Positions 5,324 to 35,284 of a stretch of DNA of 51,429 bases are shown piece by piece; position 1 is the first letter of the stretch; every line of letters starts with the position of its first letter. A program made the position numbers and the translations under genes. The stretch comes from Thermoanaerobaculia bacterium (GTDB taxonomy: Bacteria > Acidobacteriota > Thermoanaerobaculia > Gp7-AA8): positions 1 to 51,429 of the forward strand of contig DATAMS010000647.1 of assembly GCA_036260495.1 (NCBI GenBank), read 5' to 3'. Below the pieces are notes generated by a model. The model saw only the letters and a list, made by a program, of their open reading frames with translations. It searched no databases and had not been told where the DNA came from.

Positions 5324-6645
5324 GACGCGAGCGCGAGCAGGAAAAGCGCCGGCGCGGCGAGGTGCATCAACAATCGGTTGGCCGTGACTGCGATCAGGTC
5401 GGTGACGACCCATTCCGTGGCGACGTAGACGCCGCAGTAGATGGCCAGCATCGACACGATGACGGCGATGGCGATCGTGGCCGCGCGGCGATCGACGCGG
5501 ATCGCAAATGCGCCAGCGATGATGACGGCGATCCAGAAAATCCCCCAGCTCGAGAAGGCGATCATGTGCTGTGGAAATGCAGTCAGCGCGGCGCGAAGGT
5601 GGTCCAGCTTCTCCGGAATCGTCGGCAGCATGCGCACGAAATTCTCTTCGTCACCAACCGGGATGCGCCCTCGCCAGACAAGGAGTGCGACGGCGGCGAT
5701 GATTGCGAAGATCGCGGGCGTGGCGATCCTCTTTCGAAAGACGAACGCGCCGATGACGAGGAAGACCAGCGCGAATGGCAGCCCTTCGCTCTTCGTGAGG
5801 ATGAGGAAAGCGAGCCAGAGTCCGAAGCGAATCTCGCGGTAGTCTGCGGTCGCGAGGTCTCGCGGCTGCGAGGTCTCGCGATCCTTCTCCCCGATGGAAG
5901 ACCGCGAGACCGCAAAACTGCGAGACCTCGCGACCGCATCCACCAACTCGAAAAACGCGCCTGCCGCAAACGCGGCGATGGCGATGTCGTTGTACGCCGA
6001 GAGCGCGCCTCCTTCCGTTGCGATGGCAAACTGCGGAATCCAGACGAGCAACGCTGCGCACCAGGCACCGATTGCGGGCGAGATCAGATTCGCGATTCGC
6101 TCGCGCACCAGCAGCGCGAGCGCAGCGAGGAGTCCGGCGTAAAGCCAGCGAACTTGACGATCGTCGAGACTGTGCGAAAGAGCAAAGATCACGGCGCCAT
6201 CGATCGGAATCAGGATCGGATATTGGTTGCGCGGATCGAGCGTTGCGCCCTGAAAGAACGGCCCATCGATCGATCGCTCATGCGCGATCCCCTTCGCCTT
6301 CAACACCCAGAACGCGCGGCCATCGAAGTCGTTGAGCGGCGTGACGGCAGCGATGAACGCGAGAACGATCAGCGGAATGGCCATCAGGATTGTGGGGAGT
6401 GGGGTGTGGGGTGTTGGGTGTGGGGTGTCTCCTTTGTATTTGCGGTAGGTCCACACTGCGCCGCCGATGCTTGCAATCAGCAACAGCGCGAATCCAAGCA
6501 CCAACGGCACGTGCACTACGCCAGCGAGGAAGAGAATCGTCCCGAGGAGACCGACGCCGAATAGAAATGCTTCGCCCCAGCTTCGTCGCGCGACGCTCCA
6601 GCCCACGAGCGGAAAAAGGACGAGCGTGATGACGAGGCCGATCAT
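5293..6645 (-). CDS. Polytopic membrane protein, possibly a GT-C/ArnT-like glycosyltransferase; carries two in-frame repeat insertions
   Basis: 450-aa ORF with many hydrophobic helices and an ILTKSEGLPF-type loop. Its start overlaps the upstream stop (ATGA at 6642-6645). Its 3' end overlaps the convergent RNB gene by 31 nt. Confidence 0.6.
   Translation of the reverse strand: MIGLVITLVLFPLVGWSVARRSWGEAFLFGVGLLGTILFLAGVVHVPLVLGFALLLIASIGGAVWTYRKYKGDTPHPTPHTPLPTILMAIPLIVLAFIAAVTPLNDFDGRAFWVLKAKGIAHERSIDGPFFQGATLDPRNQYPILIPIDGAVIFALSHSLDDRQVRWLYAGLLAALALLVRERIANLISPAIGAWCAALLVWIPQFAIATEGGALSAYNDIAIAAFAAGAFFELVDAVARSRSFAVSRSSIGEKDRETSQPRDLATADYREIRFGLWLAFLILTKSEGLPFALVFLVIGAFVFRKRIATPAIFAIIAAVALLVWRGRIPVGDEENFVRMLPTIPEKLDHLRAALTAFPQHMIAFSSWGIFWIAVIIAGAFAIRVDRRAATIAIAVIVSMLAIYCGVYVATEWVVTDLIAVTANRLLMHLAAPALFLLALASQWWTRTKSM
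5845..5938. repeat. 94-nt palindromic element inside a CDS
   Basis: Perfect 19-bp arms: TGCGGTCGCGAGGTCTCGC (5845-5863) pairs with GCGAGACCTCGCGACCGCA (5920-5938). An inner imperfect pair and a direct repeat of GCGAGGTCTCGCG are also present. It is read through in frame. Confidence 0.85.
6392..6429 (+). repeat. G-run heptad repeat inside a CDS (G4 consensus on the + strand)
   Basis: The sequence is GTGGGGAGTGGGGTGTGGGGTGTTGGGTGTGGGGTGT. It has five G3-4 tracts separated by 2-4 nt and is translated on the minus strand as TPHPTPHTP. Confidence 0.8.
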
Positions 6646-7706
6646 CGATTGGGCTGGGACTCCGGCCAGTAAAAATCAGTCTTGCCGTTCAGTTCTCGCG
6701 TCGTTACGAAGGCATACACATTTCCGCTGACAGCCGGAATCGCGTTGATCGGTTTCGTCACGATCGCGTGCGGCATGATCGGAATCGTCTCGGGACCAAC
6801 AGTCGTCACAGCGATCGAGTCGCTGAAATTGAGAAGAAAGAGTTTCGCATCGCGATGAAGCGGAGCCGCCGGAATGTGCGTGGCGAACCGCTGCACATTC
6901 GGCAACCGCGTCGCATCACCGCGTCCTCGGTTCACGAAATAGAACGCCGTGCGCAGTGGAAGGCGTGACTCAATCTGCATCCAGCCGCTCTCCGTGACGC
7001 CGAAAAGTTGATAGACGAGGTCGTAGTACGCGACGCTGTCACCGGCCTCCATCCTCAGCGTTCTGCTCTCGCCTTTGGGCCAGAATGTGATGCGAACCTC
7101 GTTCGTGCGGGGAAGACGTTCCATCAGCGGGCTGTTCGGCGCAGGTCCGTTCTGACCAACGCTCTGGTACAGGAGCGTCGCTTCGATGATGAACGTCTCC
7201 GGCGAGGCACCATCGATTGAGGCCGCGATCGGCAGAATGAACGACGTTCCCGGCTCGCTCAACTGTGGCGTCATGACCTCGCGATGGCCCGCGCGCAACT
7301 CGCGATCGCGGAGAATTTCGTACGATGTCCGCTCCGCCTTTTCTGATGTCACCGCGACGATGGTCTTCGGCCGCGTCGGATCGGGAGCGGCGTTTCGATA
7401 GTCGTTTCGTCCGGCAAATAGTCTGGTGCGGATCGGATACAGATAGTAATTCGCGAAGATGGCCGCCTCGGTATCCCGAATGCCAATGACCAGCGCGACC
7501 GGCTCTTTTTTTGGAAGCGTTCTGCGCAGCGATTCGATCGATGCGTACCACGCGCCCATCTGCCGCTCTCTTCGCGCCTCGTACGGCAGCGGCAAGAGCG
7601 TCAGCGCTTCGCGCGTACGTGCGACCAGTCGCGGCAACGTCGTTGCTGCGAGCGAGAGCAACAGCAGCGCGCAGAAAACGCGCGGAATCAGCGAGCGGTT
7701 CCTCAT
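6642..7706 (-). CDS. Hypothetical protein with N-terminal membrane anchor/signal
   Basis: 354-aa ORF with a hydrophobic N-terminus (VFCALLLLSLAATTL). It is translationally coupled on both sides by ATGA overlaps at 7703-7706 and 6642-6645. I recognise no motif. Confidence 0.6.
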   Translation of the reverse strand: MRNRSLIPRVFCALLLLSLAATTLPRLVARTREALTLLPLPYEARRERQMGAWYASIESLRRTLPKKEPVALVIGIRDTEAAIFANYYLYPIRTRLFAGRNDYRNAAPDPTRPKTIVAVTSEKAERTSYEILRDRELRAGHREVMTPQLSEPGTSFILPIAASIDGASPETFIIEATLLYQSVGQNGPAPNSPLMERLPRTNEVRITFWPKGESRTLRMEAGDSVAYYDLVYQLFGVTESGWMQIESRLPLRTAFYFVNRGRGDATRLPNVQRFATHIPAAPLHRDAKLFLLNFSDSIAVTTVGPETIPIMPHAIVTKPINAIPAVSGNVYAFVTTRELNGKTDFYWPESQPNR

Positions 7707-8062
7707 CCTTCGCCGGCCGATACGACATGATTGTTCGCGCCCAGAGTCACGATGCGCGGTTTGTGCGCGATGGTCTGCCCTTCATGAAACGTGGCAAAGG
7801 AAAGGATGCTGATCGTGTCGCCGGTGCGCACTGGCGAGCGCGCCCCTGCATGCAACGCGATCTCGCCGCTTCCCGACTGCGCCGGCTCGACCCACGTCCG
7901 AAACCGCTCGCCCGTGCCCGTGTTGACGACCTCGACCTCCTCGAACGGCAGGATCTCCGCGGCATTCAAAACAAACGCATCAACGCGCAGCGAGACCGGC
8001 CAGAGCGTAGCCGCGCTGGTGACGACCGCGTTCTGAATGACGGCGTGGAGGAGGGTGCGCAC
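7703..8062 (-). CDS. PanD-like double-psi beta-barrel protein (divergent aspartate 1-decarboxylase homolog)
   Basis: 119-aa ORF with a GTG start. It is colinear with PanD (VT..A, D..L.AA.IL..E.V.VVN...G.RF.T, GD.I.I.SF) and lies downstream of panB-panC. The canonical catalytic motifs are altered (see findings). Confidence 0.7.
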   Translation of the reverse strand: MRTLLHAVIQNAVVTSAATLWPVSLRVDAFVLNAAEILPFEEVEVVNTGTGERFRTWVEPAQSGSGEIALHAGARSPVRTGDTISILSFATFHEGQTIAHKPRIVTLGANNHVVSAGEG

Positions 8063-8099
8063 TGGACTAATCGTATAACTGCATTCGGCTGTGCCGAAT

Positions 8100-8213
8100 G
8101 CGTTGTCGGTTGTCGGTTGATTGCGCTTCGCGCGTTGTCAGAGATGCGGACCGGCGAGACAACCCGCGCGACCGGCAACGCGCGAAGCACAATCAACCGA
8201 CAACCGACAACGC
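8100..8213. repeat. Long palindrome with heptamer-repeat arms between panC and the panD-like gene
   Basis: 37-nt arms at 8101-8137 and 8176-8212 with one mismatch. The arms contain tandem GTTGTCG units and the spacer is 38 nt. It is preceded by an 8-bp hairpin (8081-8101). Confidence 0.9.
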
Positions 8214-9071
8214 GTGCGCCGCCAGGCGCATGCAATCAATCAGGCGCGTTCTGCCCACCTTCACTGCACCGGCGATGAGGATATCGCGCTGAAAGTCTGC
8301 GGGTGCGAGGAACGTTTCGGGATCGACGACGGCCAGATAGTCGATCGTGACGCCGGGAGTTTCTTCGATTGTCTTCTGCATCAACATTTCGATCTTGCCC
8401 GCGTCGTGAACGCCTCGTCTGATCGCCTCTTCGCCAAGTCGCAACGCTCGATAAAGCGCAGGCGCGATCGCTCGTTCATCCGCCGAGAGGTAGCTGTTCC
8501 GCGACGATCGCGCCAGACCATCCGGCTCGCGCGCGGTTTCCGCGAAGACGAGCTTCACGGGGACATCGAGATCGCGGACCATCCGTTCGATCACGGCGCA
8601 TTGCTGCGCGTCTTTGCGGCCGAAGACGGCGAGGCCGGGCTGCACGATATTGAAGAGTTTCAGGACGACTGTGGCCACGCCGTCGAAGTGTCCCGGCCGG
8701 CGCTCGCCTTCGAGCGGCTTGGCCACGGCTCCGGCGCGGACCCAGGTCTGCGATCCGGGCGGATACATGACCGCGACCGTCGGTAGAAAGAGAACATCCG
8801 CACCTTTGCCTTCGAGCAACGCCGCGTCGCGCGCTTCATCGCGCGGATAGCGCTCGAAATCCTCATTCGGCCCGAACTGCGTCGGATTGACGAAGATTGA
8901 TACGACGATGAAGTCCGCGCCATTCGCGCGCGCCTCGTCGATGAGCGAGAGATGGCCATCGTGAAGAAAGCCCATCGTCGGGATGAAGCCGATGATTTTG
9001 CCGGCTGCTCGCGCGTTCGCAATGGCGTCGCGTGTCTCGTCGATGGTTCTTGTCGTGAGCATTCGCGGCAA
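8193..9071 (-). CDS. panC: Pantoate--beta-alanine ligase
   Basis: 292-aa ORF with PTMGFLHDGHLSL and VSIFVNPTQFGPNEDF motifs. The ORF opens with TTG at 9071; an ATG at 9062 is an alternative start. The stop at 8193 lies inside the right arm of the 8100-8213 palindrome. Confidence 0.9.
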   Translation of the reverse strand: MPRMLTTRTIDETRDAIANARAAGKIIGFIPTMGFLHDGHLSLIDEARANGADFIVVSIFVNPTQFGPNEDFERYPRDEARDAALLEGKGADVLFLPTVAVMYPPGSQTWVRAGAVAKPLEGERRPGHFDGVATVVLKLFNIVQPGLAVFGRKDAQQCAVIERMVRDLDVPVKLVFAETAREPDGLARSSRNSYLSADERAIAPALYRALRLGEEAIRRGVHDAGKIEMLMQKTIEETPGVTIDYLAVVDPETFLAPADFQRDILIAGAVKVGRTRLIDCMRLAAHALSVVG

Positions 9072-9075
9072 GAAC

Positions 9076-9951
9076 CTACTGCGCTTTCGGCATCTCGATC
9101 ACGATGCCCTCGCCGTACAACGCGCGCAAATCATCCGCGCTGGCCGCGTGGAACGACTCTTTCTGATCGTCAGGGAAACTTCCTTCGCGCACGTCATTGA
9201 GGTAATGCTCGATCGCGACGCGCATGTCATCGGCGATGTTTGCGTAGCGCCTCACGAATTTGGCCTGGTGGCCGTCGTAGATGCCGAGGAGATCGTGGAA
9301 GACGAGGACTTGTCCGTCGCAGGAAGGGCCGGCGCCGATGCCGAGCGTTGGAATCGAAACGCGCTCGGTGATCATCGCGGCCAGCTCCGACGGGACGCAC
9401 TCGAGCACGATCGAGAAACAGCCGGCTTGATCGAGCGCGAGCGCTTCATCGACGAGGCGGCGGGCATCGTCGAGATTCTTTCCCTGCAGTTTGAAGCCGC
9501 CGAGCGCGTTGACCGATTGCGGCGTGAGTCCGATGTGACCCATCACCGGAATCTCGGCGTCGAGGATGGCTTCGATGGCGCGAATGCGTGAAGCCTTGCC
9601 ACCTTCGACTTTGACCGCCTGCGCGCCGGCCTGGATGAAGCGGCCAGCATTGCGGACCGACTCCTCCAGGCTCACGTGATACGAGAGGTACGGCATGTCG
9701 CCGACGACGAGGGCGTGCGCGGCGCCGCGTGCGGCCGCGCGCGTGTGGTGGAGCATGTCGTCGACCGTGACGCTCAGCGTGTCGGGATAGCCGAGCACGA
9801 CCATGCCGAGGGAATCGCCGACCAGGATGATGTCGGAGCCGGCTGCGTCGGCGACCTTCGCGCTCGGGAAGTCGTACGCGGTGATCATCCCGATGCGCTT
9901 CTCGCCTTTCATGGCGCGGATGGCCGGGACGGTGATGCGTTTTTCTGCCAT
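9076..9951 (-). CDS. panB: 3-methyl-2-oxobutanoate hydroxymethyltransferase
   Basis: 291-aa ORF with MITAYDFPSAK, LVGDSLGMVVLGY and VKVEGG motifs typical of PanB. Confidence 0.95.
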   Translation of the reverse strand: MAEKRITVPAIRAMKGEKRIGMITAYDFPSAKVADAAGSDIILVGDSLGMVVLGYPDTLSVTVDDMLHHTRAAARGAAHALVVGDMPYLSYHVSLEESVRNAGRFIQAGAQAVKVEGGKASRIRAIEAILDAEIPVMGHIGLTPQSVNALGGFKLQGKNLDDARRLVDEALALDQAGCFSIVLECVPSELAAMITERVSIPTLGIGAGPSCDGQVLVFHDLLGIYDGHQAKFVRRYANIADDMRVAIEHYLNDVREGSFPDDQKESFHAASADDLRALYGEGIVIEMPKAQ

Positions 9952-9992
9952 GTGCTCCTCCGTGGGCCAGGAGGAGGAGAGTGAGTCAGCGA

Positions 9993-10089
9993 TCAGTAGA
10001 TTAGTGGTCAGTAGATTAGTGGATTAGGAAAAAACGTTCCTGGACCACCATCGACTGATCTACTCATCCACTATTCTACTAATCCACTG
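9993..10089. repeat. Imperfect palindrome built from tandem 15-mers
   Basis: TCAGTAGATTAGTGG occurs as a perfect tandem pair (9993-10022). It is mirrored by degenerate CCACTA(T/A)TCTAC-type units at 10046-10089. A central AGGAA/TTCCT hairpin is present. Confidence 0.75.
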
Positions 10090-10111
10090 CTTCCCGTCCC
10101 GGTCCGTTTGC

Positions 10112-10753
10112 TCAGGATCCAAGCGGTACGTAGTACTGCGTGCCCTTCTTTGCGTTTCGAATCTGCTCGATGAGCTGATCGAAATGCTCGGGCGTGTTGA
10201 CGAAATCGATCTCGTTCGTGTTCACGACCAGCAATGGCGTCTCGTCGTACCGGTAAAAGTAGTGTGAGTACGCCTCGCTGAGCTCTTGCAAATATTGTGG
10301 CGAGATCGACTTCTCGTAGGCCCGTCCGCGCTTCTTCACGCGTTTGAGTAGTGTATCAAGCGACGCCTGCAGATAGATAACCAGGTCCGGCTTCGGCACG
10401 CTGTCGTACAGGAGCTCGTACATCCGGTTGTAGATCATCAGCTCCGAATCTTCCAACGTCATGTACGCAAAGATCTTGTCTTTCGGAAACGAGTAGTCCG
10501 CGAGGATCAGCTCGGTGAAGAGATCGCGCTGCGAGATCGAGCGCTGCTGGTCGTAGCGCGAGAGCAGAAAAAAGAGCTGGCAGCGGAAGGCCGCGCCGCG
10601 CTTGTCTTTGTAGAAATCGGCAAGGAAGGGGTTGTCGACATCCTCGAGAATCTTCGTCCCGCGAAAGCGCTTGGCGAGCAGGTTCACCAGCGACGTCTTC
10701 CCGACGCCGATCGGTCCCTCGACGGCGATATGACGAAACGGCAGCGGCGGCAC
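10112..10753 (-). CDS. Deoxynucleoside kinase (dAK/dGK/dCK family)
   Basis: Only the C-terminal 213 aa of the 645-aa ORF look genuine. The start is a GTG at 10753 (VPPLPFRHIAVEGPIGVGKTS P-loop). The motif order is that of the dNK family (FLLSRY, DLVIYL, RVKKRGRAYE). Confidence 0.8.
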   Translation of the reverse strand: MPPLPFRHIAVEGPIGVGKTSLVNLLAKRFRGTKILEDVDNPFLADFYKDKRGAAFRCQLFFLLSRYDQQRSISQRDLFTELILADYSFPKDKIFAYMTLEDSELMIYNRMYELLYDSVPKPDLVIYLQASLDTLLKRVKKRGRAYEKSISPQYLQELSEAYSHYFYRYDETPLLVVNTNEIDFVNTPEHFDQLIEQIRNAKKGTQYYVPLGS

Positions 10754-10756
10754 GGA

Positions 10757-10839
10757 CGAAGGATAAGGGATGAAGGATGAAGGATGAAGAAAATGAGCGT
10801 GACGGCCTTCATCCTTCATCCTTCCGACTTCATCCTTCG
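10757..10839. repeat. Palindrome with GGATGAA heptamer arms in the divergent dNK/M16 spacer
   Basis: 34-nt arms at 10757-10790 and 10806-10839 match at about 27 of 34 positions. The spacer is 15 nt. The element fills 83 of the 108 nt between the two start codons. Confidence 0.85.
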
Positions 10840-10861
10840 CCTGTGATACAACCCCTCGCCG

Positions 10862-12118
10862 ATGCTTTCGATTGAAACCTACACTCTCGACAACGGCCTC
10901 CGAGTCGTCCTCAACGAAGATCACTCCGCACCGCTCGTCGCAGTCAACCTCTGGTATCACGTCGGCTCGAAGAACGAACGGCCGGGGCGCACGGGTTTTG
11001 CGCATCTGTTCGAGCACATGCTGTTCTCCGGCTCGGAGCACGTCGGCAACAACGAGCACTTTCGCTACGTGCAGTCCGTCGGCGGCGTGTTGAATGGCAC
11101 GACGTTCTTCGACCGCACGAATTACTTCGAGACGCTGCCGTCGAACTACCTCGCGCTCGGTCTCTGGCTCGAGTCCGATCGGATGGGCTTCTTCCTTCCC
11201 GCTCTGACGCAGGAGAAGCTCGACATCCAGCGCGAAGTGGTGAAGGAAGAACGCCGCCAGCGATACGACAACGTTCCGTACGGCACGGCGTTCGAACGCC
11301 TGCTCAAGCTCGCGTACGATCCCGATTACTCCTACCACTGGCCCACGATCGGCTCGATGGCCGACCTCGGCGCTGCGTCGCTCGACGACATCCGCGAGTT
11401 CTTCAGTACCTGGTACCGGCCCGACAACGCCACGCTCACGCTGATCGGCGATTTCGTTCCCGATGAAGCGAAGCAATTGGTCGAGCACTACTTTGGTTCG
11501 ATCCCCGCTGGAAAATCCTTTCCGAAGTTCGCACTGACGCGGAAGCCGCTGAACGGTGAGCGCCGCGAAACCGTCCCTTCGCCGGTGCAACTGCCGCGCG
11601 TTTACCGGCTCTATCACCTTCCGAAGATGGGACACCCTGATTGGATCGCCGCCGATCTGTTGTCGTCGGTGCTGAGCGGCGACAAAGCCAGCCGGTTCGA
11701 GAAAGCGCTCGTCCTCGAGCAGCAGATCGCGACCGACGTCGCCGCGTATGTGCTGCCAACCGAGTCGACCGGAATTCTCATGATGCAAGCGACGGCGAAC
11801 GACGACGTTCCGATCGAAGACGTCGAGCGCGCCATCGACGCCGAGATTGCCCGCGTCGTCTCGGATGGCATTACTGCCGATGAGCTGACCCGCGCGAAGA
11901 ACCGCGCCGAGGTCGAGTACGCGCACCAGATCGAAAACTACGACTCGCGCGCCGATCTGATCGGGATGATGGCGACGTACTTTGATGACCCTTCGATGGT
12001 TCACACGTGGCTCGATCCATACCGCGCCGCGACCAGCCACGACCTGCAACGCGTGACAGCCGAGTACCTCGTGCCCGACAACCGCGTGACCAGCACGTTC
12101 GTCCCGGAGACCGCATGA
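10862..12118 (+). CDS. M16 (pitrilysin) family zinc peptidase, catalytic-type subunit
   Basis: 418-aa ORF with an intact HxxEH zinc motif (GFAHLFEHMLFSGSEH). Confidence 0.85.
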   Translation: MLSIETYTLDNGLRVVLNEDHSAPLVAVNLWYHVGSKNERPGRTGFAHLFEHMLFSGSEHVGNNEHFRYVQSVGGVLNGTTFFDRTNYFETLPSNYLALGLWLESDRMGFFLPALTQEKLDIQREVVKEERRQRYDNVPYGTAFERLLKLAYDPDYSYHWPTIGSMADLGAASLDDIREFFSTWYRPDNATLTLIGDFVPDEAKQLVEHYFGSIPAGKSFPKFALTRKPLNGERRETVPSPVQLPRVYRLYHLPKMGHPDWIAADLLSSVLSGDKASRFEKALVLEQQIATDVAAYVLPTESTGILMMQATANDDVPIEDVERAIDAEIARVVSDGITADELTRAKNRAEVEYAHQIENYDSRADLIGMMATYFDDPSMVHTWLDPYRAATSHDLQRVTAEYLVPDNRVTSTFVPETA

Positions 12119-13485
12119 CGACGATCGACCGCACGACCGCGCCGCAGCCCGGCGCGCCGCGTCCGTACCATTTCCCGCAAGTCGTCCGCCGCACGCTCGA
12201 CAACGGGCTGCGCCTGCTCGTGGCGGAGAACCACAACGCGCCGCTTGTTTCGATGCGCACGCTGGTTCACTCCGGCGCTGATTACGATACGCCCGAGTTG
12301 GCAGGCCTGGCGTCGTTGACGTCGTCGCTGCTCGACGAAGGCGCCGGCACCCGCGACGCCGTTCGTCTCGCCGAAGACCTCGGCCTCCTCGGCGCGTCGC
12401 TAGGCAGCGGCGCCGATTGGGACGCGTCGTACGTCTCCGTCGATTCGCTCTCGCGTACGTTCGACGAGTCGCTGGCTATTTTCGCCGACGTCAATCGCCG
12501 CCCGATGCTGCCGGAGTCTTCGCTCGATCGCGTCCGCAGCGAGCGGCTCATGGAGTTGCTGCAGCAGAAGGATGATCCTGGCGCGATCGCGGGCAAGCGT
12601 TTCTCGCATCTGATCTACGGCCGCGGCACGTACGGCAACACGGTCATCGGTAATCCCGAATCAGTCGCGAACATCACGGTCGACGATGTTCGCCGCTACT
12701 ACGCCACGCATTTCGTTCCGAACAACGCCTCGATCGTTGTCGCGGGCGATGTCGATGCGCAAAAAGCGTTGGACGGACTGGCGCGCTTCTTCGGCGACTG
12801 GCCCGCGGTCGAAGTTCCTCCACGCCCTCAGATCTCGCCGAGAGCAAACGAAGCAAGCCGCATCTACCTGATCGACCGTCCCACAGCGGTGCAGTCGGAG
12901 ATCCGCGTCGGCCACATCGGCATCGCACGCAGCACCGAGGATTACTTCGCGCTCTCCGTGATGAACGCGCTCCTCGGCGGCGTCTTCAACTCGCGCATCA
13001 ACCTCAACCTGCGCGAAAAACACGGCTACACGTACGGCGCGCGCTCGGTCTTCGCGTTCCGCCGCCAGGCCGGCCCGTTTGTCGTCAGCGCTCCAGTCCG
13101 CAACGAAGTCACGCGCGAATCGGTGACCGAGGTGCTAGGCGAACTTCGCCGCATCCGCACCGGCGACGTCGAAGAGCGCGAGCTCGAAGACACGAAGAAC
13201 TACATCATGGGCTCGTTCCCCTCGACGGTGCAAAGCTCCAGCGACATCGCCGGCCGCGTGCTGGACATGGAGCTGAACAATCTGCCGCAAGACTACTTCG
13301 ACCGCTACCGCGAGAACATCGGCGCCGTCTCGAAAGAAGCGGTCGAGCACGTCGCCCAAAAGTACATCGACCCGGAGCGCGTCATCGTCGTGATCGTCGG
13401 CAATGCGTCGCAGATCCGGGAGCCGCTCGTGGCGCTCGGAATGCCGATTCACGAATTGGATATCGAGGGTCTGGCGATCGGGTAG
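12115..13485 (+). CDS. M16 family peptidase, non-catalytic-type subunit
   Basis: The start ATG at 12115 overlaps the upstream stop (ATGA). The layout is that of an M16 fold, but HxxEH is replaced (LTSSLLDEGAG). The ORF-track start at 12007 lies inside the upstream gene. Confidence 0.8.
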   Translation: MTTIDRTTAPQPGAPRPYHFPQVVRRTLDNGLRLLVAENHNAPLVSMRTLVHSGADYDTPELAGLASLTSSLLDEGAGTRDAVRLAEDLGLLGASLGSGADWDASYVSVDSLSRTFDESLAIFADVNRRPMLPESSLDRVRSERLMELLQQKDDPGAIAGKRFSHLIYGRGTYGNTVIGNPESVANITVDDVRRYYATHFVPNNASIVVAGDVDAQKALDGLARFFGDWPAVEVPPRPQISPRANEASRIYLIDRPTAVQSEIRVGHIGIARSTEDYFALSVMNALLGGVFNSRINLNLREKHGYTYGARSVFAFRRQAGPFVVSAPVRNEVTRESVTEVLGELRRIRTGDVEERELEDTKNYIMGSFPSTVQSSSDIAGRVLDMELNNLPQDYFDRYRENIGAVSKEAVEHVAQKYIDPERVIVVIVGNASQIREPLVALGMPIHELDIEGLAIG

Positions 13486-13489
13486 GGAA

Positions 13490-13669
13490 CCTGTCATTCC
13501 GAAACGGCGGAACCGCGGGGGCGGCGGGGCGGTGGGAGCGGTGGAGCACGGAGAGGAATCCCCTGACGATTGGAATGTACTCGCTTCGAAGGCGGGGGAT
13601 TTCTCATCGCGCTACACCGCTCACACCCACCCGGCCACCCCCGCGGTTCCGCCGATTCGAAATGACAGG
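13490..13669. repeat. 180-nt imperfect palindrome
   Basis: The left arm (13490-13543) and right arm (13615-13669) are about 85% complementary. They share the CCTGTCATT(C/T)CGAA...GGCGGAACCGCGGGGG core. An inner pair joins GAGAGGAATCCCC with GGGGGATTTCTC. Confidence 0.85.
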
Positions 13670-13749: not shown

Positions 13750-13776
13750 TTGGCGTAGTGGCAGCGCAGCTATAAT
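13750..13776 (+). promoter_or_regulatory. Candidate sigma70-type promoter giving a near-leaderless cyclase mRNA
   Basis: A perfect TATAAT (13771-13776) lies 11 nt upstream of the ATG at 13788. TTGGCG (13750-13755) lies 15 nt upstream of the -10. Confidence 0.35.
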
Positions 13777-13787
13777 CCTCCCTTCGA

Positions 13788-18872: not shown

Positions 18873-18947
18873 AACCTTCTCACGCGGAGAGCACGGAGGT
18901 TTTCTTCGCGCTTTCGCGCCTTCGCGTGAGAAGGTTTCTCTCTTTCG
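18873..18947 (+). terminator. Hairpin plus T-rich tail after clpC
   Basis: The 14-bp perfect stem AACCTTCTCACGCG (18873-18886) pairs with CGCGTGAGAAGGTT (18923-18936). It is followed by TTCTCTCTTTCG. The 36-nt loop contains TTCGCGC-type short repeats. Confidence 0.55.
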
Positions 18948-20563: not shown

Positions 20564-21895
20564 TTACCTAAGGTCCAACGCGCGCTCCACCGCTTCGATG
20601 GTCGGATCGATCTCGATCGTTCGTTCCTTCGGGACGTTGCGCAGGATGGAGTCAGTGTCCTTGAGCAGGTGGCCTGTCAGCACGCAAACGATCCGCTCGC
20701 CGTCGTGCATGACGCCCGCGGCCCGGAGTTTTCTCACGCCGGCCAGAGTCGTGGCGGATGCGGGCTCGCAGCCGATGCCCATTTCGTCGATCTCGCGTTT
20801 GGCAGCCATCAGCTCGTCGTCGGTCACTTCTTCGACGATGCCGTTCGTTGACTGAATCGCGGTCACTGCTTTGGCGTGGCTGACGGGATCGCCGATGCGG
20901 ATGGCGCTGGCGATGGTTTCGGCGCTGATTTTGTGGCGCGTGGCGAACGACTCGCGGTAGCTGCGGAAGAACGGATTCGCGCCGCTGGCCTGGATCGAGG
21001 CGAGGCGTGGCATCGTCGTGATCCAGCCGGCGTCGAAGGCTTCGCGCAGCGCTTTGCCGAAGGCGCTGGTGTTGCCGAGGTTGCCGGCGGGGACGACGAT
21101 CCAATCGGGAGCGTTCCATTCGAGATCCTGCAGCAACTCCCACACGATCGTTTTCTGGCCCTCGATGCGAAACGGGTTGATGGAGTTGACGAGATAGATG
21201 CCGAGCTTGTCGCAGGCTTCGCGAACGAGCGTCATGGCGGCGTCGAAATCGCCGCGAACGGCAAGCGCGGTTGCTCCGTACGCGAGCGTCTGCGCGAGCT
21301 TGCCGGTGGCGACTTTCCCCGCGGGGACGAACACGACCGCACGAATGCCGGCCTGCGCTGCGTACGCGGCCAGCGACGCGCTGGTGTTGCCGGTCGAGGC
21401 GCAAGCAACGGCGCGGGCGCCGAGCCGTTTGGCCTGCGTCATGGCCACAGTCATGCCGCGGTCTTTGAATGAACCGGTGGGATTTTCGCCTTCGTGTTTG
21501 AAGTGGATTCGGGTGTCGGGTGTCGGGTGTCGGGTGTGGGAGCTGTTGCCCGATCTCGGACTCTCGTTGAGATCGGAGCCTTCTCGAAGATCGTGGCCCT
21601 TGTCTGCTCTCTCCGACTCCCGGCCCCCGGCTCCCCACTCCCGCGAGTACATCCTCGTCGCCCCCTCGGGATGCGTGACGATTTGATCTTCATCGATCGA
21701 CAAGACCGCTTCGCGGAATCGCCAGACGCCGCTTTGATCGATTGTGCGGCGGCTGGCGCGGCGCGCTTCGAAGATCTCGCGATCGGGAAACGTGTCGCGC
21801 TCAACGTTCAGCAGATCGCCGCACTCGCAGGTGTAGCGGATCTCGAGCGCGTCGAACTTGCGTCCGCAGGCGATGCATTGCAGCCATTCGCTCAT
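20564..21895 (-). CDS. thrC: Threonine synthase (N-terminal zinc-ribbon type) carrying an in-frame repeat-derived insertion
   Basis: The start ATG at 21895 overlaps the thrB stop (ATGA). Motifs include CIACGRKF...CECG and the PLP-lysine motif NPTGSFKDRG, plus ASTGNTSAS and NPFRIEGQKT. The ORF-track N-terminal 137 aa are spurious. Confidence 0.9.
   Translation of the reverse strand: MSEWLQCIACGRKFDALEIRYTCECGDLLNVERDTFPDREIFEARRASRRTIDQSGVWRFREAVLSIDEDQIVTHPEGATRMYSREWGAGGRESERADKGHDLREGSDLNESPRSGNSSHTRHPTPDTRIHFKHEGENPTGSFKDRGMTVAMTQAKRLGARAVACASTGNTSASLAAYAAQAGIRAVVFVPAGKVATGKLAQTLAYGATALAVRGDFDAAMTLVREACDKLGIYLVNSINPFRIEGQKTIVWELLQDLEWNAPDWIVVPAGNLGNTSAFGKALREAFDAGWITTMPRLASIQASGANPFFRSYRESFATRHKISAETIASAIRIGDPVSHAKAVTAIQSTNGIVEEVTDDELMAAKREIDEMGIGCEPASATTLAGVRKLRAAGVMHDGERIVCVLTGHLLKDTDSILRNVPKERTIEIDPTIEAVERALDLR
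21506..21645. repeat. ~140-nt imperfect palindromic repeat element inside thrC
   Basis: The left arm is (GGGTGTC)x3-GGGTGTGGGAG (21511-21542). The right arm is C-rich, CTCCGACTCCCGGCCCCCGGCTCCCCACTCCCG (21611-21643). An inner 8-bp hairpin joins CCGATCTC (21550-21557) with GAGATCGG (21569-21576). Confidence 0.8.
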
Positions 21896-25352: not shown

Positions 25353-25378
25353 GAGGACGCGGAGTATAAGCGGCGCTT

Positions 25379-25470
25379 GGGGTCAGGTCTGAAGTGTGAA
25401 GTGACGGAAGACCGCTTCGGCCTCTCTGCGACAATCCCGATCCGTCACTTCACACTTCAGACCTGACCCC
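25379..25470. repeat. Perfect 30-bp inverted repeat upstream of thrA
   Basis: GGGGTCAGGTCTGAAGTGTGAAGTGACGGA (25379-25408) is the exact reverse complement of 25441-25470. The spacer is 32 nt. The arms contain tandem GAAGTG(T/A) heptamers. Confidence 0.95.
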
Positions 25471-25536
25471 AGGCGCCTGACGCCCTGGGAACATTGGCGG
25501 CACGCTTTTTTCGCCAGTCGATAAGCCCTGCTCCTG

Positions 25537-25840
25537 ATGACAGAACGTGCCGTGATAGGTTCGCAGCTCGATGAGCCTGTTGGTTTTGACTGGGATGACG
25601 ACAAAGCCGCTGCGAATCTCACGAAGCACGCCGTCACCTTTGAAGAGGCGATGAGTGGTCTTCGACGATCCGCTTGCTCGCATTCACGAAGATCCCGATC
25701 ACTCAGCCGGTGAAACGCGAGAAATCATCACCGGCTACTCCAACTCAGGACGGCTTCTGTTGGTATCGATCCGCATCATCAATGCCCGCAAGCCTGACAA
25801 AGACGAGCGACGCCATCATGAAGAAGAATCACGCCGCTGA
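25537..25840 (+). pseudogene. brnT: Decayed BrnT-type (DUF497) toxin gene: +1 frameshift near 25655 plus an apparent internal deletion
   Basis: Frame 1 from ATG 25537 reads ...FDWDDDKAAANLTKHAVTFEEAMS and then runs out of frame. Frame 2 from 25655 reads VVFDDPLARIHEDPDHSAGETREIITGYSNSGRLLLVS-IRIINARKPDKDERR. Joined together these follow the BrnT consensus apart from one extra G and a missing segment before IRII. Confidence 0.6.
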
Positions 25841-26072
25841 ACCAGCTCCCAACGAGATGCGGCCGCACTACGACTTCGACTACAGCAAGTCGCGCTCGAA
25901 TCGTTTCGCATCCCGGCCAAAGCTCGGCCGTGTTCGTTCGATCGTTCTCGAACCCGATGTCGCGGAGGTGTTCCACTCGTCGGACGAGGTCAACGAGTTG
26001 CTTCGTTCGATCATTACCAACCTCCCTTCCCGGCGAGCGGAGAAAAAGCCGCTGAAGAAACGCGCTAGCTGA
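25818..26072 (+). CDS. Small antitoxin-like protein partnered with brnT
   Basis: Internal ATG at 25818 (84 aa) overlapping the brnT 3' end. The pattern YDFDYSKSRSNRF...VLEPDVAEVFHSSDEVNELLRSI is typical of short antitoxins encoded downstream of DUF497 toxins. Confidence 0.55.
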   Translation: MKKNHAAEPAPNEMRPHYDFDYSKSRSNRFASRPKLGRVRSIVLEPDVAEVFHSSDEVNELLRSIITNLPSRRAEKKPLKKRAS

Positions 26073-26112
26073 TGGAGGATGAGGTTACGCTAGCTGATGG
26101 AGGATGAGGTTA
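26063..26112 (+). repeat. Perfect 25-bp tandem duplication
   Basis: CGCTAGCTGATGGAGGATGAGGTTA occurs twice (26063-26087 and 26088-26112). Copy 1 holds the antitoxin stop (26070-26072). Copy 2 holds the stop of the convergent cNMP-DUF1003 gene (26110-26112). Confidence 0.95.
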
Positions 26113-26961
26113 CGCGGGCCGGTTCGCGCGAAGCTCCTGTTCCAACACTGCAAACCGCGCCAGCATCTGCTCGTACATCCGGTCGGTCTTCTCGTGCAGG
26201 TGCGCGACCTCCAGCTCCGCCTTCACGTTGATCTCGTACTCGACGTCGGACCGGACGTGGTCCTTTTCGGCCTGACGGTTCTGGCTGACGAGGACGAAGC
26301 ACGATAGGAAAATCGCTTCGAGCGAGACGATCATCGTCAGCAGCCCGAACGGGTAAGGATCGAAGCGCGGCAGGCCCACGTTCGTCGTATTGATGATGAT
26401 CCAAATGATGAACCAGATCCCGTTCATCATGAGGAAGGGCATGCTGCCGCTGAACCAGGCGATCCAGTCGGCCACCTTTTGCAGCGTGGTCAGATGCTCT
26501 TCGACCTCTTCGTTGACGTTGCGCGACACACGTGTGCGCAGCAGCTCGTCGGCTTTGCGCATCATTCCTGTGACCGCCGCCAGCATGCTCACGGCGCTGT
26601 CGGGATGGCGTTGAAAAAGAAGAAGGAGATCTTCGCGGTCGAGCTCGAGCAGCTCGCTGTCCGACAGCGCGACCGCCGTCGCCGTCCGCGCACCGCGATC
26701 GAGAAGCGCCAGCTCGCCAAAGAGGCCTCCCTCGACCGCGTTCATCAACACGATCTTCTGGCCGGTGTTGTCGCGAATGAAAAGCTCGACCTCACCGCTG
26801 CGGACGACGAAGAGCGATTCGCCGGGATGGCCGGCTTCGAAGAGCGTCTGGCCGGCGGTTACATGAATGTTGTCGACGACCGCGGCAAGCGCAGCGCGGT
26901 CTTCGTCACTGAGCAACTCGAAAAGCTTGACGCCGGAGAGAAGTTTCGGATCGCATCCCAT
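26110..26961 (-). CDS. Cyclic-nucleotide-binding domain fused to a DUF1003 membrane domain
   Basis: 283-aa ORF. The N-terminus carries a cNMP-binding fold (FGELALLDRGARTATAVA). The C-terminus has two TM helices plus a coiled tail that matches the DUF1003 layout (FDPYPFGLLTMIVSLEAIFLS...QNRQAEKD). Confidence 0.8.
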   Translation of the reverse strand: MGCDPKLLSGVKLFELLSDEDRAALAAVVDNIHVTAGQTLFEAGHPGESLFVVRSGEVELFIRDNTGQKIVLMNAVEGGLFGELALLDRGARTATAVALSDSELLELDREDLLLLFQRHPDSAVSMLAAVTGMMRKADELLRTRVSRNVNEEVEEHLTTLQKVADWIAWFSGSMPFLMMNGIWFIIWIIINTTNVGLPRFDPYPFGLLTMIVSLEAIFLSCFVLVSQNRQAEKDHVRSDVEYEINVKAELEVAHLHEKTDRMYEQMLARFAVLEQELRANRPA

Positions 26962-27005
26962 TCGCGCATTGTAGCGGGGGACGTTTCACGCGGAGATGCG
27001 GAGAA

Positions 27006-27040
27006 ATCAGAGACAGGTGCTCTGATCTCTTGTCTCTGAT
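27006..27040 (-). terminator. Hairpin immediately after the crp stop
   Basis: The 10-bp perfect stem ATCAGAGACA (27006-27015) pairs with TGTCTCTGAT (27031-27040), 1 nt downstream of the TAA. Only a weak T-tract (TTCTCC) follows on the minus strand. Confidence 0.4.
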
Positions 27041-27041
27041 C

Positions 27042-28066: not shown

Positions 28067-28477
28067 ATGTCGATCACCCTGGAACGCCTCGCTCCCCGAG
28101 TGCTCATCGTCGATGATGACGACGGCATCCAGACCCTCATGAAGGCGCTCCTGCGACGTCGCGAAGTCATCGTCGACAGCGCCTCGGATGGCGATGCCGC
28201 CCTTCGCAAGATGCGCGAGCTCCGCTACGACTCGATCGTTCTCGATCTGATGCTGCCGAAGGTGAACGGTTTCGAGATCGTCCGGGAACTGAAGACCAGT
28301 TTGCCGGACCTTCTGAAACGAACCATCGTCGTCACCGCCGTCTCGAATCACGCACTCGCGGACTTCGAAGACAGCGAGCTCGTTCGCCGCGTCCTCCGCA
28401 AGCCGTTCGACATCAACGAGTTCATCGATGAAGTGCTGGCCTGCGCGAGCGACAACAACGGAGTAATTGACAATTGA
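28067..28477 (+). CDS. Single-domain response regulator (CheY-like receiver)
   Basis: 136-aa ORF with the acidic pocket VDDDD, the phospho-acceptor region IVLDLMLP and KPF. The last codons and the stop lie inside a tandem ATTGACA heptamer run. Confidence 0.85.
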   Translation: MSITLERLAPRVLIVDDDDGIQTLMKALLRRREVIVDSASDGDAALRKMRELRYDSIVLDLMLPKVNGFEIVRELKTSLPDLLKRTIVVTAVSNHALADFEDSELVRRVLRKPFDINEFIDEVLACASDNNGVIDN

Positions 28478-28493
28478 CAAGGGACAATTGACA
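28466..28493 (+). repeat. Tandem heptamers ATTGACA/ATTGACA/AGGGACA/ATTGACA
   Basis: Direct reading of the sequence. The response-regulator stop codon (28475-28477) lies in unit 2. Degenerate TCTnnnn heptads follow up to about 28560. Confidence 0.8.
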
Positions 28494-28659
28494 ACGAGGG
28501 CTGAAGGGTTGTTGCCTGGTCTCTTGTCTCTGCCCTCTCGTTTCTGACCTCCCCGCGACTCCGCGTCTCCGCGTGACCGTTCCCCGTAATGCAACCCATT
28601 GCATTCACCCCCCTCGTCAGCGTATTAGTTCAGCCACGTAAAACCGAGGAGCATCCGAG

Positions 28660-30021: not shown

Positions 30022-30033
30022 AACGCCGCGGAT

Positions 30034-32744: not shown

Positions 32745-32834
32745 GTGAGCTCCTTTTTGGTTTTGGGCAGGAAGCAGATGCAGAATGCGTGACAGGAGTG
32801 CGGTGGGGACTCTCAGGATAAACTCAACTCACTC

Positions 32835-33626: not shown

Positions 33627-33823
33627 GGGTTGCTGGGTTGCTCGGTTGCTGGGTTTTTGGGTTGCCGGGTTGCCGGGTTACCTGGTTGCCGGCGGCAGTC
33701 CGGTTTGTTTGAAGACAAATCATCAAAGCCAAACGTACTCAATCATTCGCCGGCAACCCGACAACCCGGCAACCCGACAACCCGACAACCCCAGCAACCT
33801 AGCAACTCGGCAACCCAGCAACC
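33627..33823. repeat. ~200-nt palindrome with 8-nt-period arms between wzm and wzt
   Basis: The left arm is (N)GGGTTGC-type octamers (33627-33693). The right arm is the complementary GCAACCC(N) octamers (33748-33823). The central 54-nt spacer holds a small hairpin. Confidence 0.9.
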
Positions 33824-33837
33824 ATAATCACCACAAC

Positions 33838-35187
33838 GTGTCCGACTACGCCATCGCACTGACCAACGTCTCCAAGTCCTACCGGCTCTGGGGACGCGGC
33901 TCGCAATTCGCGACGCTCAAGAGTGCGCTGCTGAAACGTGATCTGGCGCTCACGCCGGAAACGAGCGTCGAGGCGGTGCGCGATGTCTCGTTTGCCGTCG
34001 ATCGCGGCGAGGCATTCGGCATCATCGGCCGCAACGGCTCCGGCAAGTCAACGCTGCTCAAGCTCATCTCCGGAATTCTGAAGCCGACCAGCGGGAGCGT
34101 GAAGGTCAACGGCCGCGTCGCCGCGCTGATCGAGCTCGGCGCGGGCTTTCATCCCGAGATCACCGGGCGCGAGAACATCTACATCAACGGCATCATGCTC
34201 GGCCTTTCGCGCCGCGAGATCGAGGCCCGCTTCGACCAGATCGTGGCCTTCTCCGGCATCCCCGAGTTCATCGATCAACCAGTCAAAACCTACTCCTCGG
34301 GCATGTACGTCCGCCTCGGGTTCGCTGTCGCCGTTCACGTCGATCCTGATGTGCTGCTGATCGACGAGGTGCTCTCCGTCGGCGACGAGGAGTTCTCTGC
34401 CAAGTGTGTAGCCAAGATTCAGGAGATGAAGTACCGCGGGGTGACCCTCGTTTTCGTCACGCACCAACTCGATCAGGTGCGCAATCTCTGCGACCGCGCG
34501 CTCTGGATCGATCACGGCGAGCCGGAGACGATCGGGGATCCGGTTCGCGTTGTCGACGCGTATCTGCAAGCCGTTTCGTCAACGCAGACAGCACCTGCGC
34601 GAGCCGCTGTTGACGAGATCAAGCCGCCCACCACCGATGGTCCTCGCGATGATTCCGGCGAAGAAGAACGCTGGGGCTCCGGCGAAGTGGTCCTCTCCCG
34701 CGTCGTTCTCGTCGATAGCCGCGGCGACGAGCTCGTCGCCCTCGGGCCCGGCACGCCCGTCTCGATCGAAATGGACGTAACGGTGCGCGTGCCGCAGGAC
34801 GATTTTGTCTTCGGCGTCGGTATCTACCACGCCGGCGGCACGTGCGTGTACGGAACGAACACCGACCTCGAAGGTCTGATGCCGGAGCGCCTCGAAACGA
34901 ACGGGCGCGTCCGCTTCATCATGCCCGCCCTCGACCTCGTCGCCGGAACCTACCGCATCGACGCCGCCATCCACACCCGCAACGGCCGCGCCTTCGACTA
35001 CCGCCGCGGCGTCATCCGCTTCGTCGCCGGCTCCCGCATCCACGACGTCGGCGTCTACCGCCCCAAACACCACTGGAAATTCGAAGGTGGCATCGCCTTT
35101 CGGGAAATCGACCTCGAACAGCGCAACGTCCCGGTGGAAGTGGCGGAGGCGATGCGAGAGGCGAGGAAGCCGAGGGGGAAGGTCTAA
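33838..35187 (+). CDS. wzt: Polysaccharide/O-antigen export ABC ATPase with a C-terminal extra domain
   Basis: GTG start at 33838 (VSDYAIALTNVSKSY); upstream ORF-track residues are translated repeat DNA. Walker A GRNGSGKST, signature YSSGMYVRL and Walker B LLIDEVLSVGD are present. About 200 aa of C-terminal beta-rich sequence follow, as in Wzt carbohydrate-binding domains (inference). Confidence 0.85.
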   Translation: MSDYAIALTNVSKSYRLWGRGSQFATLKSALLKRDLALTPETSVEAVRDVSFAVDRGEAFGIIGRNGSGKSTLLKLISGILKPTSGSVKVNGRVAALIELGAGFHPEITGRENIYINGIMLGLSRREIEARFDQIVAFSGIPEFIDQPVKTYSSGMYVRLGFAVAVHVDPDVLLIDEVLSVGDEEFSAKCVAKIQEMKYRGVTLVFVTHQLDQVRNLCDRALWIDHGEPETIGDPVRVVDAYLQAVSSTQTAPARAAVDEIKPPTTDGPRDDSGEEERWGSGEVVLSRVVLVDSRGDELVALGPGTPVSIEMDVTVRVPQDDFVFGVGIYHAGGTCVYGTNTDLEGLMPERLETNGRVRFIMPALDLVAGTYRIDAAIHTRNGRAFDYRRGVIRFVAGSRIHDVGVYRPKHHWKFEGGIAFREIDLEQRNVPVEVAEAMREARKPRGKV

Positions 35188-35218
35188 CTCGTGCGGCCCG
35201 ATCTGCAACCAAAGACTC

Positions 35219-35284
35219 AACCACAGAGACGCAGAGATCACTGAGAAGAAGCGTCGACTCTGTGCTCTCTGCGCCTCTGTGGTT
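35219..35284. repeat. Inverted repeat in the wzt / antitoxin-like convergent spacer (possible bidirectional terminator)
   Basis: AACCACAGAGACGCAGAGA (35219-35237) pairs with TCTCTGCGCCTCTGTGGTT (35266-35284) with one mismatch over 19 nt. Confidence 0.8.

Follow-up and report, generated by a model that had tools for sequence, protein, structure and literature searches.

Tandem heptamers arranged as inverted arrays are known from Xanthomonas (GGGAATC) and from heterocystous cyanobacteria, in the form of short tandemly repeated repetitive (STRR) sequences and GGGGA(C/T)T heptamers (Rehm et al., 2015, PMC4692102). In Xanthomonas, 70-75 array pairs per genome, described as 'convergent', have the plus-strand array ahead of that of the minus strand and are able to form a stem-loop; no function has been found for them or for the cyanobacterial heptamers, the heptamer excess is attributed to slippage, and the inverted arrays differ in length among relatives (PMC4692102). 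Here we describe ten long hairpins, most of them with tandem-repeat arms, in a 51,429-nt stretch (the window) of a Thermoanaerobaculia bacterium (Acidobacteriota; assembly GCA_036260495.1, contig DATAMS010000647.1), and we follow the same sites in relatives. The inverted heptamer arrays are their closest precedent, of which they would be a variant without a single genome-wide unit.

The hairpins resemble these arrays by their tandem heptamers, G-rich and C-poor, by their mainly intergenic location near gene ends, by their polarity, the G-rich arm being 5', and by the presence, between the same genes in related species, of arrays of widely variable length and sequence. Whereas Xanthomonas has one unit genome-wide, many are found here (GGATGAA, GTTGTCG, GGGTGTC/GAGTCGG, GAAGTGT, AGAGAYC, AATTGAC, GGGTTGCN and a 15-mer); furthermore, the arms also include unique sequence, stems are longer (up to ~70 bp), two hairpins are in frame in genes, and the lineage is an acidobacterial one. 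Quasipalindrome template switching (PMC7202029, PMC8794818) is alike in its one-step compensation of several bases, its stem extension and its perfect arms without wobble, as seen upstream of thrA and in thrC, but it is a mutational mechanism rather than a class of elements and is not described as sustaining, genome-wide, hairpins of 60-200 nt with tandem-repeat arms. Repetitive extragenic palindromes (REPs), bacterial interspersed mosaic elements (BIMEs) and REP doublets forming hairpins (REPINs), which carry GTAG, are mostly downstream of genes, sometimes inside them, often head-to-head dimers and sometimes nested (PMC3733652, PMC3116915). REP-like members exist here, namely one type of insert in thrC, the hairpin at 5845-5938 and several hairpins of relatives; however, REPs, 20-40 nt long, number tens to thousands of copies that share a consensus, whereas the periodic hairpins share at most a unit of 7-8 nt and are mostly devoid of GTAG. 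Finally, Rickettsia palindromic elements (PMC10969869) are, like two of our hairpins, palindromic inserts of ~100-150 nt tolerated in frame in housekeeping genes, but they form conserved families, each encoding a conserved peptide at many genes, whereas those of thrC and the membrane-protein gene are restricted to a single site in each gene and are hypervariable, in length as in sequence, among close relatives.

Hairpins inherited at fixed sites and rewritten in place

Comparison with relatives (designated by L numbers) shows that the hairpins persist at fixed sites, are inherited vertically and are rewritten in place at a far higher pace than the DNA on either side. The fixed sites are spacers, mostly just past a stop codon between co-directional genes, together with two insertion sites in proteins. 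Hairpins are shared with relatives within thrC, upstream of thrA, between panC and panD, between the M16a peptidase gene and dNK, and between RR and AT3. A sequence-only reading of the window had wavered between local generation and very rapid divergence; since most sites also carry hairpins in relatives, the hairpins are not local novelties but inherited and remodelled structures, which corresponds to the second term. More distant relatives retrieved from GTDB via ClpC (65-80% identical, 67-69% G+C), with no synteny and few hairpins, were used as controls only.

The contrast between hairpins and flanks is visible with L163, which is fully syntenic with the window: hairpin-free spacers are 84-97% identical, the hairpins at 13490 (180 nt) and 18873 are lacking, and others are replaced. 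At the 13490 site, the L163 spacer is 63 nt long and devoid of hairpin, and L083 carries a different one. Upstream of thrA, where the window, L164 and L169 can be compared, the hairpins have identical outer stems and unrelated loops; the inner stems differ by 8 pairs, each altered on both sides, transversions included, one-sided changes being absent, and both tandem units have changed together (TGAAGTG TGAAGTG to GAAAGTC GAAAGTG). Between dNK and M16a, the outer GGAAGGATAA is kept in L163 and L173, with inner units GRGTGAA there as against GGATGAA in the window. Between panC and panD, the window has 2.6 units per arm, whereas the L173 hairpin has 1 in its 5' arm and 2 in its 3' arm. Between dNK and panB, an unrelated GGATGAA hairpin stands in L173, between conserved flanks, in place of the 15-mer hairpin of the window. 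The hairpin between RR and AT3, decayed in the window, is intact in L163, L164, L165, L167 and L169, with AATTGAC or AGAGAYC units.

Taken together, these comparisons show that unit number changes, that stem changes are fully compensated, that units change together and that turnover is greatest near the apex; hairpins are moreover gained, lost, replaced and nested, the reading frame being kept inside genes. Slippage plus hairpin-templated copying, as proposed from the sequence alone, fits these observations well, since unit numbers differ by arm and by relative, 8/8 pair changes upstream of thrA are compensated and units evolve in concert.

Other structures were noticed at or near these sites in relatives. 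L083 carries, at 1850-4000, a 2.2-kb insertion between M16b and the cyclase gene (cyclase 90% identical), whose open reading frames (ORFs) resemble, judging by their translations, a toxin-antitoxin pair and a membrane protein. In L173, a 274-nt element (7306-7579) composed of a long outer stem enclosing seven copies of a 15-mer (GCAGATAGTTCTTGG-like) lies between panB and panC, unlike in the window, where these genes are only a few bases apart. In L165, about three tandem copies of a unit of ~130-190 nt, rich in REP-like palindromes (GAGGCGAGACGCCTC, GCGAGCGAGACGCTCGC), are present upstream of thrA (5968-6543), and shorter versions are found in L163 and L166-L168 at the site of the window's GAAGTGT hairpin.

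Hairpins in frame inside thrC and a membrane-protein gene

Two hairpins of the window are located in frame inside real genes, at 21506-21645 in thrC and at 5845-5938 in the gene of a 450-aa membrane protein, and the corresponding inserts of relatives range from 0 to ~44 residues. Except at one site, ThrC homologues share 85-90% identity with the window protein; variation at that site brings their length from 399 aa (without insert, YER-GG-IFFKHEG) to 443 aa. In an alignment with PDB sequences, the insert lies between conserved blocks whose distance is 14 residues in Arabidopsis ThrC. This placement comes solely from that alignment; an AlphaFold model of ThrC built from 25 close sequences (mean predicted local distance difference test score, pLDDT, 46.6) was unusable, and no position in the fold was derived from it.

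The thrC site is found in many states. No insert is present in L170, and a perfect hairpin, with GAGTCGG x4 paired with CCGACNC x4, is present in L168. Among the homologues, the two complementary heptamer arms are translated into the peptide motifs E(S/W)GVGSR and TRHPTPDT. The window, L171 and L172 have degenerate forms, and L167 and L169 have half-hairpins in which the C-rich arm alone is kept. In L165, a second palindrome (AACGTAG-GTCGGACTCTCCAGTCCGAC ... CTACGTT) is nested in the loop of the first one, and in L163, L164 and L166 the nested palindrome survives and the outer arms decay. In this 'type B' insert, GTAG-tagged palindromes are joined head to head as a dimer, which lies within the loop of an older hairpin; the type B sequence is absent elsewhere in the fetched loci.

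The host of the 5845-5938 hairpin is a multi-pass membrane protein (gene 5293-6645, minus strand). According to a protein alignment, its homologues range at this site from no insert (FFELIDA-EAR-KSEIRFG; P0198, P0205 and P0224) to about +40 aa. As in thrC, the hairpin occupies a single site of the gene and the insert peptides differ between close relatives. A GTAG is found at 5839-5842, two bases upstream of the hairpin. The unpaired TGTGGGG array of the same gene encodes TPHPTPHTPLPT at a second length-variable site.

Two further cases concern genes of relatives or of the window. A composite hairpin, with outer GGGTGTG-type and inner GGGAGTC units, is located at the called start of a GH3-family gene in L166 (13681-13900), L167 (11345-11485) and L168 (10967-11263), where the called protein varies from 453 to 533 aa across relatives; it corresponds either to an in-frame insert at the N-terminus or to a hairpin between cistrons that the gene call has wrongly included. 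In the window, a pair of GTAG-headed, G+C-rich palindromes (GTAGCGCCGGCGGCTCGCCGGC...) at 2575-2620, within a carboxyltransferase gene, closely resembles an intergenic hairpin of L171 (17905-18014). A REP insert in this gene was considered and rejected, as a PDB alignment shows no net insertion.

The hairpin population of the window and its lineage

The window, part of the chromosome of an uncultured Thermoanaerobaculia, has 62% G+C and an ordinary housekeeping gene content, including rho, an RNase II gene, panBCD, two M16 peptidase genes, an FHA-GAF-cyclase gene, clpC, thrABC, a wzm/wzt pair and lexA. An independent soil-metagenome contig of the Joint Genome Institute (JGI) is identical to bases 5-12618 of the window, and a Logan contig is identical to 8826-10099, thus covering the hairpin at 9991-10084; given these identical contigs and the homologous hairpins in many independent assemblies, an assembly artefact was rejected. 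Within the window, no tRNA gene was found by a tRNA scan, no Rfam family was matched, and Pfam scans revealed neither a gene for a REP-associated tyrosine transposase (RAYT) nor any other transposase gene.

All ten loci of the sequence-only reading were recovered, at or within a few bases of the positions first proposed, by inverted-repeat search, Tandem Repeats Finder (TRF) and RNAfold, with fold energies of -43 to -137 kcal/mol (Table 1). Hairpin scores were given by a gapped inverted-repeat scorer using outward dynamic programming, with a cut-off of at least 60; it replaced two earlier finders (ungapped, or aligning a segment to its own reverse complement), which missed gapped hairpins or double-counted. 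In 20 dinucleotide shuffles of the window the maxima were 45-58, without any hairpin reaching 60, as against nine at or above 60 in the real window, and these inverted repeats are thus confirmed. A scan in the style of RNALfold with a 240-nt span was uninformative, as every window folds strongly at 62% G+C.

The short-unit periodicity ascribed to the arms is retained for most loci only. TRF confirms units GTTGTCG/CAACCGA, the 15-mer TCAGTAGATTAGTGG (2 copies, 100%), GGATGAA (5.1 copies) and CCTTCAT (4.7 copies), TCGGGTG (4.1 copies, 100%), GGGTTGCN octamers (8.2 and 8.8 copies) and, in the loop of 18873-18936, CTTCGCGC. Compared with shuffled arms, periodicity is significant (p <= 0.01) at 7/10 loci, mostly at 7 or 8 nt: 5845 (lag 16), 8080 (lag 7), 9991 (lag 15), 10751 (lag 7/14), 21510 (lag 7), 33627 (lag 8) and 13490, where it is confined to the 5' arm. 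It is marginal at 25372, which has two GAAGTGT units, and the arms of 18873 and 35216 show none beyond that of shuffled arms. The condition under which the sequence-only reading was to be refuted, a periodicity not enriched over shuffled sequence, therefore does not hold at most loci.

Table 1. Hairpins, decayed hairpins, unpaired arrays and one host gene of the window. Arms and complementarity are those of the inverted-repeat search.
Feature	Position	Strand	Score	Arms (length, complementarity)	Remarks
Unpaired G-rich 14-mer array	2253..2286	+			directly after rho stop codon; TRF
REP/BIME-like hairpin of self-complementary CGCGAGGTCTCGCG units	5845..5938		77	5845-5883 / 5900-5938 (39 nt, 85%)	in frame in 450-aa membrane-protein gene
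Unpaired TGTGGGG array, 5.4 copies	6391..6428	+			in 450-aa membrane-protein gene; TRF
GTTGTCG-heptamer hairpin	8080..8234		120	8095-8137 / 8176-8218 (43 nt, 93%)	panC>panD spacer, minus-strand operon; 52 bp; right arm overlaps last codons and stop of panC
Hairpin with two copies of 15-mer TCAGTAGATTAGTGG per arm	9991..10084		60		dNK stop to panB start
GGATGAA-heptamer hairpin	10751..10845		68	10751-10789 / 10807-10845 (39 nt, 82%)	divergent dNK/M16a spacer
180-nt hairpin, weakly periodic, G-rich	13490..13669		138	13490-13532 / 13627-13669 (43 nt, 88%)	-137 kcal/mol; begins 5 nt past M16b stop, upstream of cyclase promoter
Short hairpin with CTTCGCGC repeats in loop	18873..18936	+	45	18873-18889 / 18920-18936 (17 nt, 94%)	after clpC; T-rich tail
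thrC (threonine synthase)	20564..21895	-			host of in-frame hairpin; thrA-thrB-thrC operon
GGGTGTC-heptamer hairpin, partly degenerated	21506..21645		43		in frame in thrC, codons ~84-130
Near-perfect 37-bp hairpin, GAAGTGT units	25372..25477		104	25372-25408 / 25441-25477 (37 nt, 97%)	directly upstream of thrA promoter (TATACT, 10 nt before ATG)
AGAGACAAGAGAT remnant	27025..27037	-			crp>cNMP spacer; unit family common to large L165 and L167 hairpins at crp>cNMP
Decayed hairpin	28465..28600				RR>AT3 spacer; AATTGAC array on one side, AGAGAC units on the other; poor pairing
GGGTTGCN-octamer hairpin	33627..33823		134	33651-33694 / 33748-33791 (44 nt, 86%)	ABC-2 permease to wzt; -129 kcal/mol; arms of 8 vs 9 units, with different unit variants on each arm
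30-bp hairpin, AGAGAC/AGAGAT units	35216..35287		62	35216-35245 / 35258-35287 (30 nt, 87%)	after wzt, convergent spacer; arms not significantly periodic

After proper delimitation of the genes, 8/10 hairpins are intergenic and 2/10 are inside real genes. Six are in spacers between co-directional genes (panC>panD, dNK>panB, M16b>cyclase, clpC>permease, cNMP>thrA and wzm>wzt), one is in a divergent spacer (dNK/M16a) and one in a convergent spacer (after wzt). Of the overlaps with coding sequences noticed earlier, those in thrC and the membrane-protein gene are real, with hairpins in frame, but most are due to spurious ORFs or over-extended gene calls. Similarly, the low-complexity peptides MKDEG... 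and GFLGCRVAG... are indeed hairpin-derived, but both are gene-call artefacts: the former is a false N-terminus of dNK, whose automatic call (10112-10819) is lengthened by hairpin-derived codons and which should start at the GTG that yields VPPLPFRH..., and the latter a false N-terminus of wzt, whose call (33646-33840) is also hairpin-lengthened, the wzt start lying past 33823.

Such hairpins are typical of one clade of uncultured Thermoanaerobaculia, of ~62% G+C and with a ThrC of ~80% identity or more to that of the window. Clade loci (315 kb) contain 54 hairpins with a score of at least 60 (1.7 per 10 kb), 19 of them periodic, as against 60 (0.27 per 10 kb), including 11 periodic ones (0.05 per 10 kb), in 2.2 Mb of unrelated loci. 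Hairpins of this architecture are therefore also present, though rare, outside the clade and are much enriched within it. Heptamers dominate, with lag 7 or 14 in 13/19 periodic clade hairpins, and the 5' arm has more G than C in 19/19 of these and in 9/11 periodic controls, independently of the strand read.

At least eight different units are found by TRF within the window, some of them recurring. An all-against-all BLAST of 57 clade hairpins (315 kb) limits matches between non-orthologous hairpins to 18-36 nt of repeat units, loops and flanks not being common to them. As had been argued, the hairpins are thus not a single REP, BIME or MITE (miniature inverted-repeat transposable element) family with a shared consensus; no such multi-copy consensus was found among the 57 hairpins, low-copy families being possible. 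The accompanying statement that every copy is different holds in part but goes too far, as unit families recur and some hairpins are GTAG-tagged and REP-like. AGAGAY units are present in three separate spacers of the window (27025, 28519, 35225; 0.02 expected), GGTTGY-type units at 8100 and 33627 and twice in L084, where the GGGTTGCN unit of the 33627 hairpin is found in two hairpins, and GGGAGTC/GGGTGTC units in thrC and in other loci of L166-L168.

The promoter regions next to two of the hairpins share a particular arrangement. At 25353-25371 and 13764-13787, the ATG of thrA and that of the FHA-GAF-cyclase gene are preceded, by 10-11 nt, by TATACT and TATAAT, respectively, without Shine-Dalgarno sequence, an arrangement kept in all relatives, which suggests from sequence that both transcripts may be leaderless. 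The upstream hairpins end just before these promoters, and their 3' arms supply TGAC-containing, -35-like hexamers. The spacer between cNMP and thrA, of 757 nt, contains a 132-codon ORF (25674-26072) without Pfam match; over part of its length this spacer has 77% identity to L163, so that a small or decayed gene may be present in it. At 26063-26115, the 3' end of the cNMP-binding/DUF1003 gene carries a perfect tandem duplication of 25 nt (CGCTAGCTGATGGAGGATGAGGTTA, 2.1 copies, 100% identical). Finally, an inverted repeat with a 96-nt loop (14655-14861, score 68) lies within the cyclase coding sequence, where L083 and L085 have weaker versions of it. This repeat probably arises as a side effect of the conserved coding sequence, outside the hairpin population.

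Possible origins of the hairpins

One possibility, which we favour while granting it about an even chance, is that the hairpins are quasi-palindromes remodelled in place by replication slippage and arm-to-arm template switching. Slippage would make and resize the arrays of 7-8-nt units within an arm. The nascent strand would then copy the other arm by intramolecular template switching (quasipalindrome 'correction') and pass each change across, so that complementarity would survive without step-by-step selection. Turnover would be strongest near the apex, and a hairpin would occasionally be replaced, or a palindrome, including GTAG-tagged REP-like dimers, nested in its loop. Selection would merely filter the outcome, for frame inside genes and for the polarity G-rich arm 5' / C-rich arm 3'. 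In E. coli, template switching is established as a class of mutations (PMC7202029), and it is known to create and maintain perfect hairpins (PMC8794818). The process would act at the DNA level rather than at the RNA level, as there is no G.U excess and transversions are compensated, and a role as transcribed stem-loop (3'-end protection, cistron insulation or termination) is probably secondary and independent of sequence. Two speculative ideas could account for polarity: a polymerase stalled on a G-rich template arm might switch only once a nascent G-rich arm exists, or hairpins with the C-rich arm first might expose a C-rich, G-poor loading site for Rho.

Several observations do not sit easily with slippage and template switching in place. 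No near-identical strains differing by a single slippage or template-switch event were found. The GGATGAA of the L173 hairpin between dNK and panB matches the window hairpin located across dNK, and this replacement looks like a cassette exchange or a movement rather than a change in place. Unit families recur at non-orthologous spacers, and GTAG/CTAC is found within 10 nt of the border in 15/57 hairpins of the lineage, about four-fold more than expected (~3.4), which points to some REP/RAYT-type involvement. Strict polarity and position just past stop codons could, furthermore, reflect selection for function. The recurring units and the border tags would fit non-autonomous mobile palindromes, REP/REPIN- or MITE-like and moved by a RAYT-type or other transposase, having diverged so fast, partly through slippage, that families are hard to see in 51 kb, an explanation that we regard as possible but unlikely. 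It would also account for the type B insert of thrC, as nesting and REPs within genes are known for GTAG REPs (PMC3733652), for the REP/REPIN-like multi-copy units of relatives (L165 5968-6543, L171 9873 and 11274), for the presence/absence or wholesale replacement of hairpins between conserved flanks, and for in-frame insertion in genes, which parallels Rickettsia palindromic elements (PMC10969869). However, in the window the tag is found at 5845, 9991 and 13490 (where it overlaps the TAG stop codon) and is absent at 8080, 10751, 21510, 25372, 33627 and 35216, that is at most periodic hairpins; similarity between non-orthologous hairpins stops at the periodic array, and no target-site duplications or common termini are seen in alignments of occupied with empty or replaced sites. 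Same-site hairpins clearly diverge in place, the type B sequence is confined to thrC in the fetched loci, and the window has no transposase gene. MITEs proper were rejected on the lack of shared termini, target-site duplications and near-identical non-orthologous copies among the fetched loci.

Could the hairpins instead be functional RNA stem-loops under selection, acting as U-tract-less terminators, as protectors of 3' ends from exonucleases or as RNase III sites setting cistron expression, as proposed for REP/BIME? Their very stable stems, their predominance in spacers, where several begin 1-7 nt past a stop codon (13490, 18873, 33627), and their persistence with full compensation at spacers shared across species are consistent with it, and the polarity would be expected if C-rich, G-poor nascent RNA had to be hidden from Rho. 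But two hairpins are within coding sequence, half-hairpins persist in thrC of L167 and L169, the 13490 and 18873 hairpins are dispensed with in L163 despite its conserved spacers, that of RR-AT3 is decayed in the window, and no Rfam family matches. Mismatches in stems show no G.U excess on either strand, hence no sense-strand enrichment, the counts being small and weak evidence against RNA-level selection, and selection for pairing alone does not explain the concerted change of all tandem units. As had been claimed, the hairpins are not simply terminators: a T-rich tail follows 1/10 of them, that of 18873-18936, which is the sole locus resembling an intrinsic terminator and the only hairpin flagged (18912-18935) by a terminator scan of 5-25 kb, and no T run was read after the 25372, 33627 and 35216 hairpins. 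Intrinsic terminators were therefore rejected as a class, the G+C-rich stem and T tract being combined at that locus only. With no G.U excess on either strand and a single T-rich tail, a purely RNA-level function is not favoured, a secondary role of the stem-loops in transcripts being likely, and we consider selection on RNA unlikely as the main explanation. Arrays forming G-quadruplexes or i-motifs in DNA or RNA, with an incidental hairpin form, have been considered for the heptamers of Xanthomonas and Nostoc (PMC4692102), and G3 tracts, at least four of them and separated by short loops, do exist in some 5' arms (21509-21537, GGGTGTC x4; 33627-33692; 6391-6428; 13515-13547); with many units having GG or less (GGATGAA, GTTGTCG, GAAGTGT, AATTGAC, AGAGAYC, TAGATTAGTGG) and a complementary arm nearly always present, which would out-compete quadruplex folding, this appears very improbable. 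Integron attC sites were rejected, the hairpins being in housekeeping operons of mixed orientation, without visible RYYYAAC/GTTRRRY cores in their arms and without integrase in the window, and so were CRISPR-like arrays.

It is also conceivable, but doubtful in our opinion, that an active process, so far undescribed, operates in the clade, by which palindromes would grow outward from the hairpin tip or hairpin cassettes would be exchanged among spacers. A structure-specific nuclease or an HUH/RAYT-like enzyme could, as one possibility, open hairpin loops that would then be filled in. Such a process would explain the new palindromes nested at the apex, the old outer and young inner stems, the strict polarity and the presence, at one fixed site of essential genes such as thrC, of a hypervariable palindrome in frame.

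For annotation, these hairpins matter because they give rise to spurious ORFs and to N-terminal extensions that are false. They and the Xanthomonas arrays follow one simple rule, a G-rich arm in 5' position. A palindromic insert that keeps changing is tolerated, at a single fixed site, in an essential enzyme, threonine synthase, and in a membrane protein. Slippage and arm-to-arm copying would be recorded at dozens of sites shared across many metagenome-assembled relatives, and the clade would offer a dense natural test bed for the creation and upkeep of long perfect hairpins without step-by-step selection.

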